From a virus: DNA of 64,000 bases. How positions within the stretch are numbered: the stretch's first letter is position 1; each line of letters begins with the position of its first letter. A program made the position numbers and the translations under genes. The DNA is taken from IMG/VR virus record IMGVR_UViG_3300012039_000002, positions 99,356 through 163,355 of that record. One strand, 5' to 3'. Below, in pieces: positions 43,344 to 50,477 of the stretch. The notes below the pieces were generated by a model that saw only the letters and a program-made list of their open reading frames with translations, had not been told where the DNA came from and did not search any database.

Positions 43344-43763
43344 ATGGAAGACATAAAAGGTTTCTTCGGCAAGAACAGATTTCTGTCGAATTTCTACCCT
43401 GCTGTGATAGAATACGAGGGTGTGAAATATCCAACAGTTGAACACGCTTATCAGGCGGCCAAAACTAAGGATTGGGTTCTCAGAGGACACATTTCGAGGA
43501 TGGAGACACCCTCGCAGGCTAAAAGGGCTGGTGCAACACTCAATCCGCCCGACTGGCATGAAAGAAGTCTCCAGACAATGGAGCTTCTTGTAAGGCTGAA
43601 GTTCACAACGCACACCAATCTCAAATACAAATTAATAGCTACAGGTCTTGCTGATCTTGAAGAGACTAATGAATGGCAAGACATGTTTTGGGGCGTGTGC
43701 AATGGGGTTGGTAGCAATCATCTTGGAAAGATTCTGATGAAGGTAAGAGGAGAGTTGTGGTAA
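43344..43763 (+). CDS. NADAR (YbiA-like) family protein
   Basis: FLSNFY, YPTVEHAYQAAK, KF, L..TG, D.FWG, G.NHLGKILMKVR. Confidence 0.9.
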   Translation: MEDIKGFFGKNRFLSNFYPAVIEYEGVKYPTVEHAYQAAKTKDWVLRGHISRMETPSQAKRAGATLNPPDWHERSLQTMELLVRLKFTTHTNLKYKLIATGLADLEETNEWQDMFWGVCNGVGSNHLGKILMKVRGELW

Positions 43764-44863
43764 TGCCTAATGCGGATAAAATAAAGACCCTGATTCCAAT
43801 GCATGAGATTGAGCAGGGTGCACAGCAACAGATATACGACAACGCAAACATTCCGTTTGTGAAGACTATAGCTGTCATGCCAGACTGTCATCAGGGATAC
43901 GATTTGCCCATTGGAGCTGTGGCTCTAGTCGAAGATCATATTTCGCCTTCGTATGTCGGTTATGACATAGGTTGCGGTATGATCTGCTACGAAATACCAC
44001 AAAGCAACATCGAAAACTTTCACACAAAAGATAGACAGCATCTCTTTGAGGAAATAAAAGAATGCATTCCCGTAGGCTTCAACGAACATGAGAATCCATA
44101 TGCTAAGTCTTTTTATTCGGCTTCTGGTGATAAAGAACTCACCGACAAAGTCAATGCTAAGTTGACTAAGCAGAATGGCACACTTGGTGGTGGCAATCAT
44201 TTCATTGAGCTTGGCTATAACGCAAACGGAAGCGTCTTCATTACCATACACTCAGGCTCCAGACGCCCTGGGTGGGAGATTGGCAATTGGTATATGAATG
44301 AAGCTAAGAAAGACAACCAGCTTTATCACAAGTTCTTCCACTTGGACTCTTCATTGGGTAAGGCTTATTTAGCTGACATGAACTTCGCTCTCGAGTTCGC
44401 TTTGGCTAATAGATTGGACATGCTTAAGGAAATCATCAATCTCATTACTGGTAGCAGGACTCTATTTGAGTATATAAATGAAAACCACAATCACGCTATA
44501 GTGTGGGACGCTGGTGTGCTCCACCGTAAGGGTGCTACACCGGCAGAAAAGGGTCAGCCTGGCGTTATACCTGGCTCAATGAAAACTGGAGTCTATATAA
44601 CTGAGGGCTTGGGCAACTGGAACTACCTTGTGTCAGCGTCTCATGGCGCTGGCCGTAAGATGTCTCGTGGCTTTGCTAAGAAGAACATTACGTTGGAGTC
44701 GTTTAAAGAACAGATGGAAGGTATCATTGCCAATGTAGATGTAACGACTCTAGACGAGGCACCTGACGCTTATAAGGATTTAGATTACGTAATTAACGCG
44801 CAGAAGGGCATAGTTGTGAATGTCGTCGACTTCATTCAACCCATAATCAACATCAAGGGGTGA
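43763..44863 (+). CDS. rtcB: RtcB RNA ligase
   Basis: MPDCH, VGYDIGCGM, GTLGGGNHFIE, HSGSR, HNH, HRKGAT, IPGSM, SHGAGR. Confidence 0.95.
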   Translation: MPNADKIKTLIPMHEIEQGAQQQIYDNANIPFVKTIAVMPDCHQGYDLPIGAVALVEDHISPSYVGYDIGCGMICYEIPQSNIENFHTKDRQHLFEEIKECIPVGFNEHENPYAKSFYSASGDKELTDKVNAKLTKQNGTLGGGNHFIELGYNANGSVFITIHSGSRRPGWEIGNWYMNEAKKDNQLYHKFFHLDSSLGKAYLADMNFALEFALANRLDMLKEIINLITGSRTLFEYINENHNHAIVWDAGVLHRKGATPAEKGQPGVIPGSMKTGVYITEGLGNWNYLVSASHGAGRKMSRGFAKKNITLESFKEQMEGIIANVDVTTLDEAPDAYKDLDYVINAQKGIVVNVVDFIQPIINIKG

Positions 44864-44867
44864 CGCT

Positions 44868-45056
44868 ATGAAATGCATTAGCTGTTCATTTGCAAAGTTT
44901 GAGAGGGATCCCGACCCTTATGATTGGTTTTGTGATGACGACACTAAAATCATTTGCACAGCGGGCAAGAAACAACGGCAGGTTTGTGGCGGTGTTCGTC
45001 CATATGAGTTGAAAAAAGTCGAGGCTCCTAAGTGGTGTATTCTCCGCGATAAATAG
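44868..45056 (+). CDS. small Cys-rich protein
   Basis: CxxC..C..PKWC. Confidence 0.55.
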   Translation: MKCISCSFAKFERDPDPYDWFCDDDTKIICTAGKKQRQVCGGVRPYELKKVEAPKWCILRDK

Positions 45057-45059
45057 AGA

Positions 45060-45088
45060 TGTACAATCCCTATAGCTTTTGATATAAT
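45060..45088 (+). promoter_or_regulatory. repeated phage promoter (rSAM operon)
   Basis: TGTACA-N17-TATAAT with extended TG. Confidence 0.8.
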
Positions 45089-45115
45089 AATCCCATCAAT
45101 CAATGAGGAGAGTGC

Positions 45116-46192
45116 ATGATCACACTCGCTGACAAGACGAATAAGTTCGTGTCTATGTTTGACCCTAAAACAGGATTCTATGTCCGTACAGGCATTATTG
45201 AGAACGGAAAAGACACGGGTGTCGATCCCTTCATGACTACTTACCCTCAGCTTATTGATGTCGGAATCATGGGCTCTTGTGAGTCGGGAAGACTAGGCCT
45301 GTGCAAACAAGCGGGAATTCAGTGCTACCAGGACGGTCTCAATAAGTCTCTCCCAGACATGACGCTCGACAACTTCAAGAAGATTGTGGATGAGTCTAAG
45401 GGCAAGGTATTTCAAATCGCTCTTGGTGGTAGAGGTAATCCCAACAAGCACGCTCAGTTCGGTGAAATCCTCAAATATTGTCGAGGCAACGGTATTGTGC
45501 CCAACTACACTACTTCAGGAATGAATCTCACGGATGAAGAGGTCGCTCTTACAAAGAAGTATTGTGGTGCTGTAGCGGTTTCATGGCAGAGAGCACAGCA
45601 TACTCTTGATGCTATCAGGATGTTTGTGAAGGCAGGTGTGAAGACTAACATCCACTATGTCCTTGGTAATTTCAGTATTGAAGAGGCGGTTGATAATCTT
45701 TATGGCATTGATTGCAATTTTCCCAAAGGTATCAATGCTGTAGTTTTCTTGGCTCATAAGCCCGTAGGTTTAGGCGATGAGAAGAATGTGTTGCGGGCTA
45801 ACGATCCTTTAGTGAAGAGATTCTTTGATCTCATTGATAACAATTCTTTCCCATTCAAGATTGGGTTTGATTCTTGCAGCGTTCCCGGCATCCTCAACTA
45901 CACTGCTAAGATAGATAAAGCGTCTATTGACACTTGTGAGGGTGGAAGATGGAGCACGTACATTTCATCTGACATGGTGGCTCTCCCATGCTCATTCGAC
46001 CAAGAACATAGGTGGGGTGTGCAGTTGGATGAGAATACTACAATTCAAAATGCGTGGAATGGAGCGTATTTTGAGGATTTTAGGAATTCCTTCCGTACTT
46101 CATGCAGAGGGTGTAAAGATGTGATAGAATGCAAGGGCGGTTGTCCAATTAAAAAGCAGGTTGTGCTTTGCGACAGGAAAGAGAAATCATGA
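45116..46192 (+). CDS. radical SAM/SPASM-domain enzyme with atypical Cx7Cx6C motif
   Basis: CESGRLGLCKQAGIQCYQ; ALGGRGNP; YTTSG; SPASM CEGG..PCSF..CRGC..CKGGCP. Confidence 0.85.
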   Translation: MITLADKTNKFVSMFDPKTGFYVRTGIIENGKDTGVDPFMTTYPQLIDVGIMGSCESGRLGLCKQAGIQCYQDGLNKSLPDMTLDNFKKIVDESKGKVFQIALGGRGNPNKHAQFGEILKYCRGNGIVPNYTTSGMNLTDEEVALTKKYCGAVAVSWQRAQHTLDAIRMFVKAGVKTNIHYVLGNFSIEEAVDNLYGIDCNFPKGINAVVFLAHKPVGLGDEKNVLRANDPLVKRFFDLIDNNSFPFKIGFDSCSVPGILNYTAKIDKASIDTCEGGRWSTYISSDMVALPCSFDQEHRWGVQLDENTTIQNAWNGAYFEDFRNSFRTSCRGCKDVIECKGGCPIKKQVVLCDRKEKS

Positions 46193-46596
46193 AAATTAGA
46201 CTCGATTTTGTAACTAATAGCTCTTCTTCGGCTTTCATAATCAAGAAGAAGAGGCTTACTGCCCGGCAGATATACATGATAAACAACCATGTGTATTTTG
46301 GCTCCCTCTTCAATGGTATCTATGCTAAGCTTGTGGGATCAGATCAGGCGCCATTCTATATGGACGAATGGAAGATTGAAGAGGATGAGGCTGAGATCCG
46401 TGGAGAAACTTCTATGGATAACTTTGGCATGGAAGAATTCTTTGAGCATATTGGCGTAGAAGATAAATTCGTCAAGTGGAGCGAAGATAATTATCATGAC
46501 TTAGACACGAAATACAAGATTCCTTGGCATGGCATGACAAATAAAGAGATTCACAAAAGAGTAGTGGCGGCCAACAAAAAGAAAAGTCTTAAGTGA
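46189..46596 (+). CDS. FVTNSSSS-motif protein 1
   Basis: MKIRLDFVTNSSSSAF; ATGA overlap with the rSAM stop. Confidence 0.8.
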   Translation: MKIRLDFVTNSSSSAFIIKKKRLTARQIYMINNHVYFGSLFNGIYAKLVGSDQAPFYMDEWKIEEDEAEIRGETSMDNFGMEEFFEHIGVEDKFVKWSEDNYHDLDTKYKIPWHGMTNKEIHKRVVAANKKKSLK

Positions 46597-46604
46597 GGTA
46601 AAGC

Positions 46605-46952
46605 ATGAAAATAAGAACAGACTTCGTTACAAATTCAAGTTCAAGCTCCTTCATCATAGCCGTAAAGTCAGATCTGACCAAAGCGGAAGCAAAGGACGTT
46701 GTAGATAAATATTTTAAGACGCAAATCGAAGAGCTTATGGGAAACGTAGATCGAGATACAGAATCGCTCGAAGAAGAAATCAAGGCAGATCTTGTTTCGA
46801 CAATTATGGAAGCTAAAAGCGGCATGAAGCTTGATGACTGGAGAGTTTCTGGCGGCGACGCGCGCTCTGATGAATACGACGCTTCTTGTGTGCTCCACAT
46901 GTCCGGTGAATTCAACAGCTCAAAGGTGAAGTTCAAGAATGTGGGGTGCTAA
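46605..46952 (+). CDS. FVTNSSSS-motif protein 2
   Basis: MKIRTDFVTNSSSSSF. Confidence 0.8.
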   Translation: MKIRTDFVTNSSSSSFIIAVKSDLTKAEAKDVVDKYFKTQIEELMGNVDRDTESLEEEIKADLVSTIMEAKSGMKLDDWRVSGGDARSDEYDASCVLHMSGEFNSSKVKFKNVGC

Positions 46953-47318
46953 ATGAAGGTCAGAACCGACTTCGTTACGAACTCGAGCAGCTCAAGTTTC
47001 ATTGTCGTTGCGAAAAACAAGAGTGCGCTCAAGACTTCCGTTACTATTCCCGTTGACTTTAACACTCTGGCGTCCAAAGAGATTAAGTCAAAGAAAGACG
47101 CTTTGGAATATAGCAAGGACAACGATCTCGACGCTGAAACAACTGAACGCATGCTTGCTGAAATAGAAAAGGGCAATTCGTTGTTTGATATTCATGTAAG
47201 TTCGGACGATGATGAGCCTGTTAGCAGATACATCCACGAAACAACCGAAGGGGATTATGAAGACGTTCGGCGCCTTCTCCCCGGTATGGTTGTGTTCAAG
47301 ACGGAGTATTCGTATTGA
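46953..47318 (+). CDS. FVTNSSSS-motif protein 3
   Basis: MKVRTDFVTNSSSSSF. Confidence 0.8.
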   Translation: MKVRTDFVTNSSSSSFIVVAKNKSALKTSVTIPVDFNTLASKEIKSKKDALEYSKDNDLDAETTERMLAEIEKGNSLFDIHVSSDDDEPVSRYIHETTEGDYEDVRRLLPGMVVFKTEYSY

Positions 47319-47650
47319 AAATCAGAACTGATTTTGTCACGAATTCAAGCAGCTCAAGCTTTGTAATTGCTAAAGCTGCCGTAACTGAAGAGCAGATTCA
47401 GGCATTTAGAGGCTTGAATAACTTTTTGCGGAACAAGTATTTTGAACAAGGCCAAGACATTTGGCAACCAGGCTTTACTTCAAAAGAAGGCTTTGATTTT
47501 GATGCTGTCTGGTGTGGCGATTATTGGACTATAAGAGAAGACGAAAACTACATTGAAGGCTACACATCTATGGACAATGGCGACTTAGGTAAATTCATTA
47601 AGGAAATAGGCATCGACACTAAACTAATGAGGTTCTCTAATGAAGGTTAG
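47315..47650 (+). CDS. FVTNSSSS-motif protein 4
   Basis: TTG start, MKIRTDFVTNSSSSSF; body similar to protein 1 (WxIxEDExxIxGxTSMDN). Confidence 0.8.
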   Translation: MKIRTDFVTNSSSSSFVIAKAAVTEEQIQAFRGLNNFLRNKYFEQGQDIWQPGFTSKEGFDFDAVWCGDYWTIREDENYIEGYTSMDNGDLGKFIKEIGIDTKLMRFSNEG

Positions 47651-48152
47651 GACTGATTTTGTGACCAACAGCTCTTCAAGCTCATTCATTGTGGCATTTG
47701 AAAAGGTGCCTGAGACCATTAGCGAGATGAAGAAGCTGCTTTTCAAAGAGAATGAGCTTAAGTTCGATTGCTTCCCATACTACGACGAGCTCTATTCTGC
47801 CAATGATATCGCTATCAAGATTATCAACGACATGCCAGGGCATGAAGTCAAGAAGGCATCTGATCTTCTCGATGTCATTGACGGCGGTGATGATTGCGAT
47901 GACTATACTACTATTCCAACGCCTAAGTTCCCTGAGTTTGTAAAAGACGAGAAGCTCCGCAATAAGCAGTGGAAGGCATATGAGGATCTTGCCAGCGCTA
48001 GGGCCAAAGACATCGCAAAGAACTTTATGACTAAGAACAAGGGCAAGAGAATTTTCACTTTTGAATATAGTGATCACGATCGTCTTGGCGCCGCCATTGA
48101 ACATGGTGGTATTCTTGAAAGACTGGACTGCATCAGAATATCTCGACACTAA
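47640..48152 (+). CDS. FVTNSSSS-motif protein 5
   Basis: MKVRTDFVTNSSSSSF. Confidence 0.8.
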   Translation: MKVRTDFVTNSSSSSFIVAFEKVPETISEMKKLLFKENELKFDCFPYYDELYSANDIAIKIINDMPGHEVKKASDLLDVIDGGDDCDDYTTIPTPKFPEFVKDEKLRNKQWKAYEDLASARAKDIAKNFMTKNKGKRIFTFEYSDHDRLGAAIEHGGILERLDCIRISRH

Positions 48153-48167
48153 GAGGTGAGGTGAGGC

Positions 48168-48530
48168 ATGAAAATTAGAACTGATTTTGTAACTAACAGT
48201 AGCTCAAGTTCGTTTGTTGTGTTTGGCGTAGGTACAGATATCCTGAAGCTTAATATAACAGATGAGGAGCTTGAAGAGAAGTATGACGGTAGCATGAACG
48301 AATATCTTTACGAAAAAGCCGAAGGCACGTCTCTTAAGGCCGGCTCGGCTTATTATGATAGCGACGAGCACTCTGTAGGCCTCAGCCCTGAGACTTTGCT
48401 CAAGAAATTCGGTGACAGAAAAATCAGTGAAATTCCGCAAATAGTAGCTGAAGAGATTGAGAAAGCATTCGGTGTAAAAATCGACCCAAAGAAAGTGGGC
48501 TACATCGAAGAGGCAAGTTATAACGGGTGA
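48168..48530 (+). CDS. FVTNSSSS-motif protein 6
   Basis: MKIRTDFVTNSSSSSF. Confidence 0.8.
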   Translation: MKIRTDFVTNSSSSSFVVFGVGTDILKLNITDEELEEKYDGSMNEYLYEKAEGTSLKAGSAYYDSDEHSVGLSPETLLKKFGDRKISEIPQIVAEEIEKAFGVKIDPKKVGYIEEASYNG

Positions 48531-48837: not shown

Positions 48838-49551
48838 ATGGCCCTTATACTGGGAGACATTCACGGCAACATCGACAAGGCTAAACAGTTTCTTGCGTTT
48901 AGACCTGAGGAGCAGCATATATTTGTGGGTGACTATGTCGATTCGTTTGAAGCAAGTGACATGGATATCTACGACACGCTGAAGTTGTGTATAGAATCTA
49001 AGGCTATGATGCTTCTTGGCAATCACGATCTTCATTATTTCAAAGAGCCTCCATTCATGTGCTCTGGTTGGAGAAGTCACATGGCTAATGGACTTGCTGA
49101 GATATTTGAAGAGTTTGTCAAAGACGAAAGATTCAGGCCAGCGTGCGTTGTGGACGGTTTTCTTGTAACTCACGGTGGTTTATCTGAAGGCTTGGGCAAC
49201 AGCATGCAGGCTGGAAAAGATGCAAATACCATTCTTAGTAAGATTGAAGATGAATGGAAAGCATACTTGGAAACTAGGTTCAAGAGGAAGCCAAGTCAGC
49301 CTCGAACTCCTCGAAAGATATTCAATATCGGTGTCTTTAGAGGTGGAAGAGACTCCTTTTCTGGCATATTTTGGGCAGACTACCGAAGTGATAGACTCTA
49401 TGGCGTGCCACAAATATTCGGCCATTCAAAGACGCCACTCCATGATATAATAAACATAGGTGGCAAAAATGACTTCTGGGCTATTGGCTGTGACAATGAC
49501 AGACGTATTTGCTTTGACTCCAAGACTAAAGAGGGAGTAAACTTTGGCTGA
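48838..49551 (+). CDS. calcineurin-like metallophosphoesterase
   Basis: GDIHG, GDYVD, GNHD, THGG, FGHS. Confidence 0.9.
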   Translation: MALILGDIHGNIDKAKQFLAFRPEEQHIFVGDYVDSFEASDMDIYDTLKLCIESKAMMLLGNHDLHYFKEPPFMCSGWRSHMANGLAEIFEEFVKDERFRPACVVDGFLVTHGGLSEGLGNSMQAGKDANTILSKIEDEWKAYLETRFKRKPSQPRTPRKIFNIGVFRGGRDSFSGIFWADYRSDRLYGVPQIFGHSKTPLHDIINIGGKNDFWAIGCDNDRRICFDSKTKEGVNFG

Positions 49552-49996
49552 TGAAAAAGGGCCGCGACGACCTCCAACAAAAGAAGACGCTTCTTTTTGG
49601 GCGGACCTTGCATTTACATTAGTAAACGAAATAGCATGCAAGTGCGGTCAGGTGAACAAAGTTCTACCAGAATGGCACACAGGATTCTTCAGAGTTGAGT
49701 GTGACAGTTGCTTTGAAGAATTAGATCTTCACAGGTTGCTGAGGACGCCTGACCGCACAAGCATGCTCATTAAAGCAATCGATGAGGATAAAGAGTCCGT
49801 CGTAAAAAGCGCATCCGAGAGCTTTACTGATTCGCTGCCACCGCAAGATCCCAAGATGAGGAAGTATGTCGCTGAGTTAGAAGATGCTTGGCGCAAGAAG
49901 GAAAAATCAAGCGAGTGGACTGATTCTGTTGAATGGAACGAAGACATAGGGCGCTACGTCAGAATAAAAGAGGACGGCTCGTATGAAACTGACTAA
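49544..49996 (+). CDS. Zn-ribbon hypothetical protein
   Basis: CKCG..CDSC. Confidence 0.55.
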   Translation: MADEKGPRRPPTKEDASFWADLAFTLVNEIACKCGQVNKVLPEWHTGFFRVECDSCFEELDLHRLLRTPDRTSMLIKAIDEDKESVVKSASESFTDSLPPQDPKMRKYVAELEDAWRKKEKSSEWTDSVEWNEDIGRYVRIKEDGSYETD

Positions 49997-50477
49997 AAAA
50001 CAGCTCGATATAGTCCAGTATCCTGAGGCTATACTCAATAGTACTAATAACTCTAAAATTGAAGATTTCGGAAGCGACTGGCTATATGCACTTATCGTCA
50101 ACATGGTGTATACAATTCAGCGAGTAAAGGGTTTGGGATTGGCGGCTCCTCAGGTGGGACTGCCTCTCCGTATAGCAGTTGCTCTTATTGATAGACAGCC
50201 AGTGGCTCTGATTAACCCTGAGATCGTGGAGAAGTCAGACGAACAGGTTACCATCGAAGAATCCTGTCTATCGTGCCCTAATGAAGCTGTGCGCATCTCT
50301 AGGTCATCTAGAGTAAAGGTGGCCTATTACAACGTAAAAGGACAAGAGAAGACATTAGAAGTGGCAGGAATCAACGCTATTATTATACAACACGAGTTAG
50401 ATCATCTCAATGGAAAGCTTATAGTGGACTATAAAGATGTCAGCCCTGCCCCCGAGCTATTACAAGATCCTAGCTGA
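49983..50477 (+). CDS. def: peptide deformylase
   Basis: GLGLAAPQVG, ESCLS, QHELDHLNG. Confidence 0.93.
   Translation: MKLTKKQLDIVQYPEAILNSTNNSKIEDFGSDWLYALIVNMVYTIQRVKGLGLAAPQVGLPLRIAVALIDRQPVALINPEIVEKSDEQVTIEESCLSCPNEAVRISRSSRVKVAYYNVKGQEKTLEVAGINAIIIQHELDHLNGKLIVDYKDVSPAPELLQDPS

Follow-up and report, generated by a model that had tools for sequence, protein, structure and literature searches.

The last 64 kb of IMG/VR virus record IMGVR_UViG_3300012039_000002 (the window) harbors an operon in which a gene for a radical S-adenosylmethionine (SAM) enzyme with a SPASM domain is followed by six genes whose products, here termed clients, start with almost the same 16 residues. The source record is a complete 163,355-bp viral genome with direct terminal repeats, and many freshwater-sediment metagenome runs contain near-identical DNA. 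We favor the view that the operon encodes a two-component system, in which one radical SAM/SPASM enzyme captures and modifies a portable N-terminal recognition tag of 16–19 residues on its clients, the latter being probable effectors. Because the pair recurs in many large phages and in gut bacteria and also lies beside an Avs2-type gene, it probably represents a widespread system of protein modification. Neither partner is covered by a curated family: Pfam, NCBIfam and PADLOC yielded nothing specific for the enzyme or for any client, with the hits to client bodies at chance level. A full-text literature search returned nothing on the tag motif or on the enzyme-tag pairing, in keeping with the initial annotation of this DNA, which had been made from the sequence alone and knew of no described function for the system.

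The tag and its association with a radical SAM enzyme

The products of the six genes share the consensus MK[IV]R[TL]DFVTNSSSS[SA]F. The near-invariant N-terminus reported in the initial annotation amounts to 13 of the first 16 positions (M1, K2, R4, D6, F7, V8, T9, N10, S11–S14 and F16) being identical in all six, and these are the only tags in the 163,355-bp genome. By contrast with the peptide, the 48-nt regions encoding the tag show a mean nucleotide identity of 63% (range 50–77%), and TCN and AGY codons are mixed at every Ser position. As the synonymous sites are thus scrambled and saturated, conservation acts at the peptide level, as had been proposed, and the same scrambling excludes mRNA or translation-start reasons for it. 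A signal-peptide reading is ruled out by the lack of a hydrophobic core.

The tag extends well beyond this virus. A profile built from the tag only (first 36 residues) matched 21,369 cluster representatives at E ≤ 0.001 among 1.84 billion, and in 139 of the 149 best motif-matching hits of this profile the tag begins at residue 1. Residues T9, N10, S11, S12 and S13 are invariant among 125 diverse tagged proteins, while position 6 is G rather than D in some clades. Several database proteins (P0123–P0127, P0135, P0142 and P0235) carry two tags, the second internal and usually following M-K, an arrangement that suggests in-frame fusions of neighboring tagged genes.

The initial annotation had named the genomic neighborhood of the tag as a check on its proposal, and the association it anticipated was found in both viruses and bacteria. 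Scanning IMG/VR with the tag only gave 77 loci, 65 of which contain an enzyme homolog inside the fetched flank, and the same scan of a set with one genome per prokaryote species gave 80 loci, mostly from gut Firmicutes, with an enzyme homolog in the flank of 73. As a baseline, any enzyme homolog is present in only 170 of 50,697 cultured phage records. The enzyme in the viral loci usually lies directly upstream of 1–7 tagged genes. The radical SAM and tagged proteins are the sole gene families common across the viral loci, and likewise across the bacterial ones; a third partner (deformylase, protease or exporter) was considered and rejected because none recurs across loci.

The association also holds where the genes are dispersed. 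In a distant T4-like branch, whose enzyme shows 27% identity, no tagged gene lies close to the radical SAM gene of Klebsiella phage Miro, and the two tagged proteins of this phage (MKIRSGFVSNSSSSSF) are encoded ~20 kb away. One of these proteins is present in 175 phage records, including that of E. coli phage RB16, with a genus breakdown nearly equal to that of the radical SAM enzyme. The cultured carriers comprise E. coli phages RB16 and Lw1 and Klebsiella phages KP15, KP27 and Miro, of which Miro, KP15 and RB16 have the dispersed version. The Miro tagged genes, CPT_Miro114 and CPT_Miro119, flank a gene for a 738-residue protein annotated with a von Willebrand factor type A domain (L164, KT001919.1 67179-71549).

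The pair is described too narrowly as phage-encoded, the term used in the initial annotation, as it is also found in Firmicutes chromosomes and on an Agrobacterium plasmid. The usual Firmicutes form is one tagged protein of ~124 residues directly upstream of the enzyme, and in 18 loci (including L088:9519-11445) an XRE-type helix-turn-helix regulator precedes the two. The further neighbors vary (transporters, kinases, recombinases), which makes the Firmicutes pair a small self-contained cassette. A contig of an Eubacteriales metagenome-assembled genome (L086:7629-15505) carries the radical SAM gene followed by genes for two very large tagged proteins of 777 and 1,834 residues. The Agrobacterium locus, found by a plasmid search with a short-form enzyme, is a four-gene operon on plasmid pAt of Agrobacterium tumefaciens Ach5 in which a tagged protein and a radical SAM/SPASM enzyme accompany an Avs2-like protein (Table 1).

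The enzyme and its predicted complex with a client

Family libraries gave the enzyme weak and generic hits (SPASM, E 0.003; distant mycofactocin (MftC), PqqE and tungsten-cofactor maturase models), and the phage family profile that matches it, phrog_7293 (1e-21, residues 21–340), is annotated as function unknown, as is the client family phrog_7397. The enzyme family counts 5,474 proteins at E ≤ 0.001, the best 120 of which are all at least 60% identical. With the SPASM hidden Markov model (HMM; PF13186/TIGR04085) the window enzyme scores 18.3 bits, under the 21.5 cut-off that its homologs pass, and the Pfam Radical_SAM HMM, significant for the homologs, does not match the window enzyme at E 1.

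The putative cluster-binding residues are evident from the family alignment. Three Cys for the SAM cluster and eight for the SPASM domain are conserved among homologs, the latter comprising the signature C330-x2-C333-x5-C339-x3-C343 with C352 and, in addition, C254, C274 and C292. The invariant A102-L-G-G-x-G107 that follows strand 2 is the glycine-rich SAM motif. The initial annotation had called the enzyme atypical, and the feature that bears this out is the SAM-cluster triad, which is C55-x7-C63-x6-C70 instead of the canonical CX3CX2C. Among ~171 homologs the loop spacing is CX7CX6C in 132, CX5CX3C in 13, CX6CX6C in 5 and CX3CX2C in 5. The CX7CX6C form dominates the window clade, the Miro enzyme has CX7CX2C, and the canonical spacing is kept by short twitch-like members and by the Agrobacterium homolog. 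A short sister clade (L004, L040, L069 and L073) lacks the last four SPASM Cys and is twitch-like. Since the three Cys are kept throughout the family, we infer that the expanded loop is a functional cluster site.

The AlphaFold2 (AF2) model of the enzyme, built from a 27-sequence alignment, has a predicted local distance difference test (pLDDT) score of 93.9. It shows a partial TIM-barrel that Foldseek matches at probability 1.00 to many radical SAM structures, preceded by only ~45 residues with three short strands, of which residues 2–24 form an N-terminal three-strand element. The nearest solved folds are SuiB (5v1s, E 2.6e-11), anSME, PqqE (6c8v), TigE, SkfB (6efn), CteB (5wgg) and ChlB, at 13–16% identity, and each of these enzymes is of the SPASM/twitch type and modifies peptides or proteins. 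When PDB sequences were searched with a profile, SkfB was found at 2.4e-5; searched by sequence with the single enzyme, the PDB gave spurious repeat-protein hits only. In fold and in cluster sites, the modeled enzyme thus corresponds to SPASM enzymes that modify peptides.

Two homologs of the enzyme have unusual features of their own. One (L160, G405:C1:134785-135783), which lies on the 236-kb contig of L003 ~90 kb from the tagged genes, contains one in-frame TAG, reflecting either a broken gene or stop-codon recoding. Another (L051:4644-6980) is interrupted immediately ahead of the invariant ALGGxGD by an insert of >400 residues, which has C as its first residue and SHN at its end, followed by C; these flanks look intein-like.

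To describe how the partners might interact, we predicted the complex of the enzyme with client 4 in the presence of SAM and three 4Fe-4S clusters, in three runs and together with three controls. The interaction prediction scores from aligned errors (ipSAE) were 0.64, 0.69 and 0.63 for the complex and 0.00 for all three controls; 58 of 80 solved complexes pass the ipSAE mark, as do 2 of 110 mismatched pairs, a calibration that is rough here because the present runs include ligands and their own alignments. The runs share at least 65% of their contacts, and the confident client contacts are confined to residues 1–19. Client residues 1–7 lie against enzyme residues 19–26 (T-G-F-Y-V-R-T-G, of which T19, G20 and G26 are conserved), with K2 predicted near D37 and F7 touching Q100, N130 and A152. 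The other enzyme contacts (100–102, 128–132, 151–154, 176–180, 207–212, 248–253, 274–276 and 293–294) belong to the lining of the barrel and to the first part of the SPASM domain. Conserved enzyme positions make up 28 of 51 at the predicted interface as compared to 45 of 307 elsewhere (Fisher p 2e-9), a bias that is partly expected for any barrel interior. The complex model supports binding of the tag by the enzyme.

Organization of the operon and diversity of the clients

The radical SAM gene and the six consecutive tagged open reading frames (ORFs) of the initial annotation are all present, on the + strand (Table 1). The junctions are tight: beyond the ATGA overlap that couples the enzyme gene to client 1, the spacings between successive clients are +8, 0, -4, -11 and +15 nt. 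A single promoter had been proposed for the operon. A promoter-like site does lie upstream of the radical SAM gene, with 10 of 12 consensus matches, and it is the best in the region; it is a consensus match only, and such sites are no more numerous there than in shuffled sequences. Directly upstream of this site is an ORF for a 62-residue Cys-rich protein (window 44868-45056; seven Cys) with no family match. The genes around the operon are non-structural and encode NADAR, RtcB RNA ligase, calcineurin-like phosphoesterase and peptide deformylase proteins (window 43344-44863, 48838-49551 and 49983-50477). The deformylase gene is also found downstream of the operon in a close relative, L096, and is not recurrent in the other loci. 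In four sediment metatranscriptome runs, short exact contigs cover some stretches of the operon and of the neighboring genes at a depth of 1–7; these libraries may contain DNA, and bins without coverage are uninformative.

Table 1 Genes and promoter-like site of the window operon (window coordinates) and genes of the pAt operon of A. tumefaciens Ach5
Feature	Position	Strand	Properties and evidence
Sigma-70-like promoter candidate (TGTACA, 17 nt, TG-TATAAT)	45060..45088	+	10/12 consensus matches, extended -10 TG; 28 nt upstream of the radical SAM start
Radical SAM/SPASM enzyme, 358 aa	45116..46192	+	phrog_7293 profile, SPASM match, AF2 model, Foldseek
Client 1, 135 aa, tag MKIRLDFVTNSSSSAF	46189..46596	+	ATGA overlap with the radical SAM stop; body family that of client 4
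Client 2, 115 aa, tag and acidic body	46605..46952	+	BLAST cluster with L032, L042, L054 and L057 proteins
Client 3, 121 aa, tag and acidic body	46953..47318	+	Ortholog in close relative L096
Client 4, 111 aa, TTG start, small alpha/beta body	47315..47650	+	AF2 pLDDT 73.5; body family that of client 1
Client 5, 170 aa, phrog_7397 family	47640..48152	+	C-terminal F.F.YSD..G...EHG motif in common with Klebsiella phage Miro CPT_Miro119
Client 6, 120 aa, tag and acidic body	48168..48530	+	Ortholog in L096
pAt gene 1, 888-aa protein			SMEK_N domain and STAND NTPase; PADLOC Avs2 models 1.5e-21
pAt gene 2, 121-aa protein			
pAt gene 3, tagged 131-aa protein			Tag MKLKMDFVSNSSSTSF
pAt gene 4, radical SAM/SPASM			36% identical to the window enzyme (E 6e-68)

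In contrast to their shared tag, the bodies of the six clients represent five or more unrelated groups by BLAST and hhalign (1 and 4; 5; 2; 3; 6). The motif noted earlier in copies 1 and 4 is common to the pair as WxIxE..IxGxTxMDN..F...IG, with the remaining copies in different groups, and the mostly acidic character ascribed to the bodies holds for five of the six, which have isoelectric points of 4.4–5.4, the value for copy 1 being 6.2. The diversity is greater still in the wider set. The bodies (from residue 21) of 297 distinct tagged proteins from the fetched loci form 51 BLAST clusters, and the 22 of these that could be profiled reduce only to 17 groups at an hhalign probability of at least 90%. 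Searching Pfam with the 125 diverse tagged proteins revealed no recurrent family, as each matching family hit one member; one large tagged protein contains BspA-type leucine-rich repeats (LRR; Pfam LRR_5, 1.2e-18).

Client 5 matches phrog_7397 at 4e-11, whereas the other five clients match only via their first 19–28 residues. It shows 25% identity (E 1e-7) to CPT_Miro119 in a pairwise comparison only; tblastn of client 5 against cultured phages gave no match, and in the ESM Atlas it matches only unnamed viral clusters. In the AF2 model of client 4, tag residues 14–19 form strand β1 and residues 1–10 are unplaced. Foldseek with this model found nothing at E ≤ 0.001 in the PDB and BFVD, and VIA-align returned generic ferredoxin-like two-layer folds only (Z ≤ 5.5), with no functional lead.

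The relative L096, the enzyme of which is 80% identical to that of the window, keeps orthologs of copies 1, 2, 3, 4 and 6, has one additional client and encodes a different protein at the place of copy 5; given these differences, the client set turns over quickly. Between its radical SAM and client genes L096 also carries a gene for a 225-residue protein (L096:1234-1911), probably a homing endonuclease, with weak matches to DUF559 (Vsr-like endonuclease) and to a ROS/MucR zinc finger.

Proposed mechanism, alternatives and known systems

In the mechanism that we propose, the tag would be captured when client residues 1–7 pair as a β-strand with the conserved enzyme strand T19–G26, and the invariant F-V-T-N-S-S-S-S is predicted to lie thereby in the substrate side of the barrel, beside the SAM site and the SPASM domain. 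A hydrogen atom would be abstracted from a tag residue, leaving a covalent change, with T-N-S-S-S and the flanking F/Y as candidate targets. Known SPASM enzymes offer several candidate chemistries, among which we make no choice: conversion of Ser to an aldehyde (as by the anaerobic sulfatase-maturating enzyme, anSME), epimerization, an ether link through a Thr or Ser oxygen, and a cross-link from an aromatic residue to a β-carbon. Because the tag is strictly at residue 1 and its residues 14–19 become client strand β1, capture would probably precede or accompany folding, when the N-terminus is newly made or not yet folded. The clients would be effectors of phage-host conflict that need the mark to work; their small acidic bodies, their fast turnover, the early-type promoter-like site and the Avs2-like link are all consistent with such a role.

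The initial annotation had proposed one enzyme that recognizes a common tag on diverse clients and modifies it at TNSSSS. The recognition part of this proposal gains from the co-occurrence of the two families and from a predicted complex in which client residues 1–19 only are bound; a covalent change at TNSSSS stays an inference. Several points weigh against tag modification by the enzyme. There are 12 of 77 viral loci with no radical SAM gene in the flank, and when three of these contigs were searched whole, the enzyme was found in one, ~90 kb away, the two that lack it being 26% and 84% complete. The viral loci are without an accompanying leader protease or exporter, unlike classical systems for ribosomally synthesized and post-translationally modified peptides (RiPPs). 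The CX7CX6C loop is non-canonical and its activity is assumed from conservation alone. Finally, the client fold in the predicted complex is uncertain (partner pLDDT ~40), and the passing score may in part reflect solved complexes of radical SAM enzymes with peptides that are already familiar to the predictor.

The foremost rival explanation is that the tag stays unchanged and plugs interchangeable bodies onto the enzyme, with the bodies either bringing third-party targets (host proteins, nucleic acids or small molecules) to it or regulating it. The F-box follows a comparable docking logic. Such an adaptor would fit the pairing of one enzyme with many unrelated bodies (at least 17 profile-level groups; 21,369 clusters), some of which are binding modules, such as the BspA-type LRR of the large tagged protein, and the predicted complex itself speaks for binding, not for turnover. 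Moreover, the small accessory protein of the KpAvs2 operon stably binds its sensor (PMC11564622). However, in the prediction the substrate side of the barrel is taken up by the tag, so that other substrates would be blocked, and the absolute invariance of T-N-S-S-S exceeds what docking of a strand would need; we regard plain docking as unlikely. It is more improbable still that the tag is a shared β-strand through which clients assemble into hetero-oligomers or fibers, with the radical SAM enzyme merely a frequent neighbor that has a separate substrate. The common arrays of 2–10 clients would suit assembly, as would the AF2 monomer of client 4, where residues 14–19, following the unplaced residues 1–10, form an edge-type strand able to pair with another chain. 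Yet bacterial cassettes usually hold one tagged protein with the enzyme, the co-occurrence persists with genes 20 kb apart, and the enzyme-tag complex scores 0.64 against 0.00 for the controls.

Least probable of all, to the point that we would be surprised to see it borne out, is a sorting signal for diverse cargo, directing either secretion or capsid targeting. The layout of the operon does resemble that of the T4 internal proteins, which are tandem, fast-evolving and diverse in their bodies and share an N-terminal capsid-targeting sequence. By contrast with these, the present tag travels with a radical SAM enzyme and not with a head protease, and it is also found in bacteria, where the pair occurs in chromosomes and on a plasmid beside regulators, transporters and a STAND (signal transduction ATPase with numerous domains) gene, without virion genes. 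No head protease or structural gene co-occurs with the tag, which lacks the hydrophobic core expected of a signal peptide, and the window operon itself is set among the non-structural RtcB, NADAR, phosphoesterase and deformylase genes.

Returning to modification of the tag by the enzyme, this reading would, if correct, define a post-translational modification system for whole proteins that is common to phages and bacteria and takes in >21,000 protein clusters. For the radical SAM genes that accompany Avs2-type antiviral operons and are as yet unexplained, it would also offer a specific hypothesis, and a simple sequence signature would delineate a large set of phage early proteins that are probable conflict effectors. 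The tag and enzyme could serve as a tool for site-specific protein modification, and because cultured phages of laboratory hosts carry the system, it is directly testable. More tentatively, and with appreciable doubt, tag and enzyme may constitute a general, radical-made N-terminal marking or activation of whole proteins that operates on both sides of phage-host conflict. Avs2-type sensors would then use one tagged accessory, while large phages would encode shifting sets of tagged effectors or decoys, either dependent on the same mark or hijacking it.

Among known systems, the one closest in context is the anti-phage operon KpAvs2-Avap1-Avap2 of Klebsiella pneumoniae, in which the radical SAM protein Avap1 is required against some phages and the small protein Avap2 binds the KpAvs2 sensor (Bechon et al. 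2024; PMC11564622). There, as in the pAt operon, a radical SAM enzyme and a small protein travel with an Avs2 STAND sensor, a likeness for which Avap1 and Avap2 were compared by description and Pfam family only; the window differs in having no STAND gene. DUF6375 (PF19902), the family to which Avap2 is assigned, had no match in the 125 tagged proteins at E ≤ 0.01, in the six window clients at E ≤ 1, in the phage genome or in three cassette-carrying bacterial genomes. It was absent from 401 sampled Bacillota genomes as well, but the control genomes gave none either. The PF19902 comparison thus does not establish homology of the enzyme-tag pair to Avap1/Avap2. The pAt operon has surroundings of its own. 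On the opposite strand beside it, a gene encodes a 1,279-residue protein (L165:8140-11979) whose N-terminus is weakly LmuA-like and which matches a novel-STAND NTPase below the cut-off. Genes for an integrase, the VapB antitoxin and a (p)ppGpp synthetase lie near this gene, which gives the setting the look of a defense island.

Another close system is anSME (PDB 4K36–4K39). This SPASM enzyme, whose two auxiliary clusters are fully ligated, oxidizes a Ser or Cys side chain of a protein substrate and does so without a PqqD-like recognition domain, and its fold matches the model of the window enzyme at E 3.6e-9. The tag, however, does not contain the motif (C/S)-x-(P/A)-x-R that anSME targets, and there is no sulfatase domain among the 125 clients.

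The parallels with the RiPP maturases (SuiB/SuiA of streptide, CteB, SkfB and PqqE/PqqA) concern the way in which substrates are recognized. The window enzyme belongs to the same fold class, one enzyme serves several substrates that have a conserved N-terminal recognition segment, and this segment is predicted to pair as a strand and to enter the barrel. The differences lie first in the substrates, which here are not short leader-core precursors but whole proteins of ~110–170 residues (elsewhere up to 1,834) with unrelated folded bodies, and in the tag, which would be the recognition part and the likely target at once. The loci, viral and bacterial, have no leader protease or exporter, a search for a PqqD-like/RiPP recognition element (RRE) domain had no hit at E ≤ 1, and the enzyme is set apart by its 13–16% identity to the solved enzymes and by its CX7CX6C loop. 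While the enzyme-tag pair thus departs from RiPP systems in several defining features, its logic is, by analogy, like that of leader-guided RiPP maturation.

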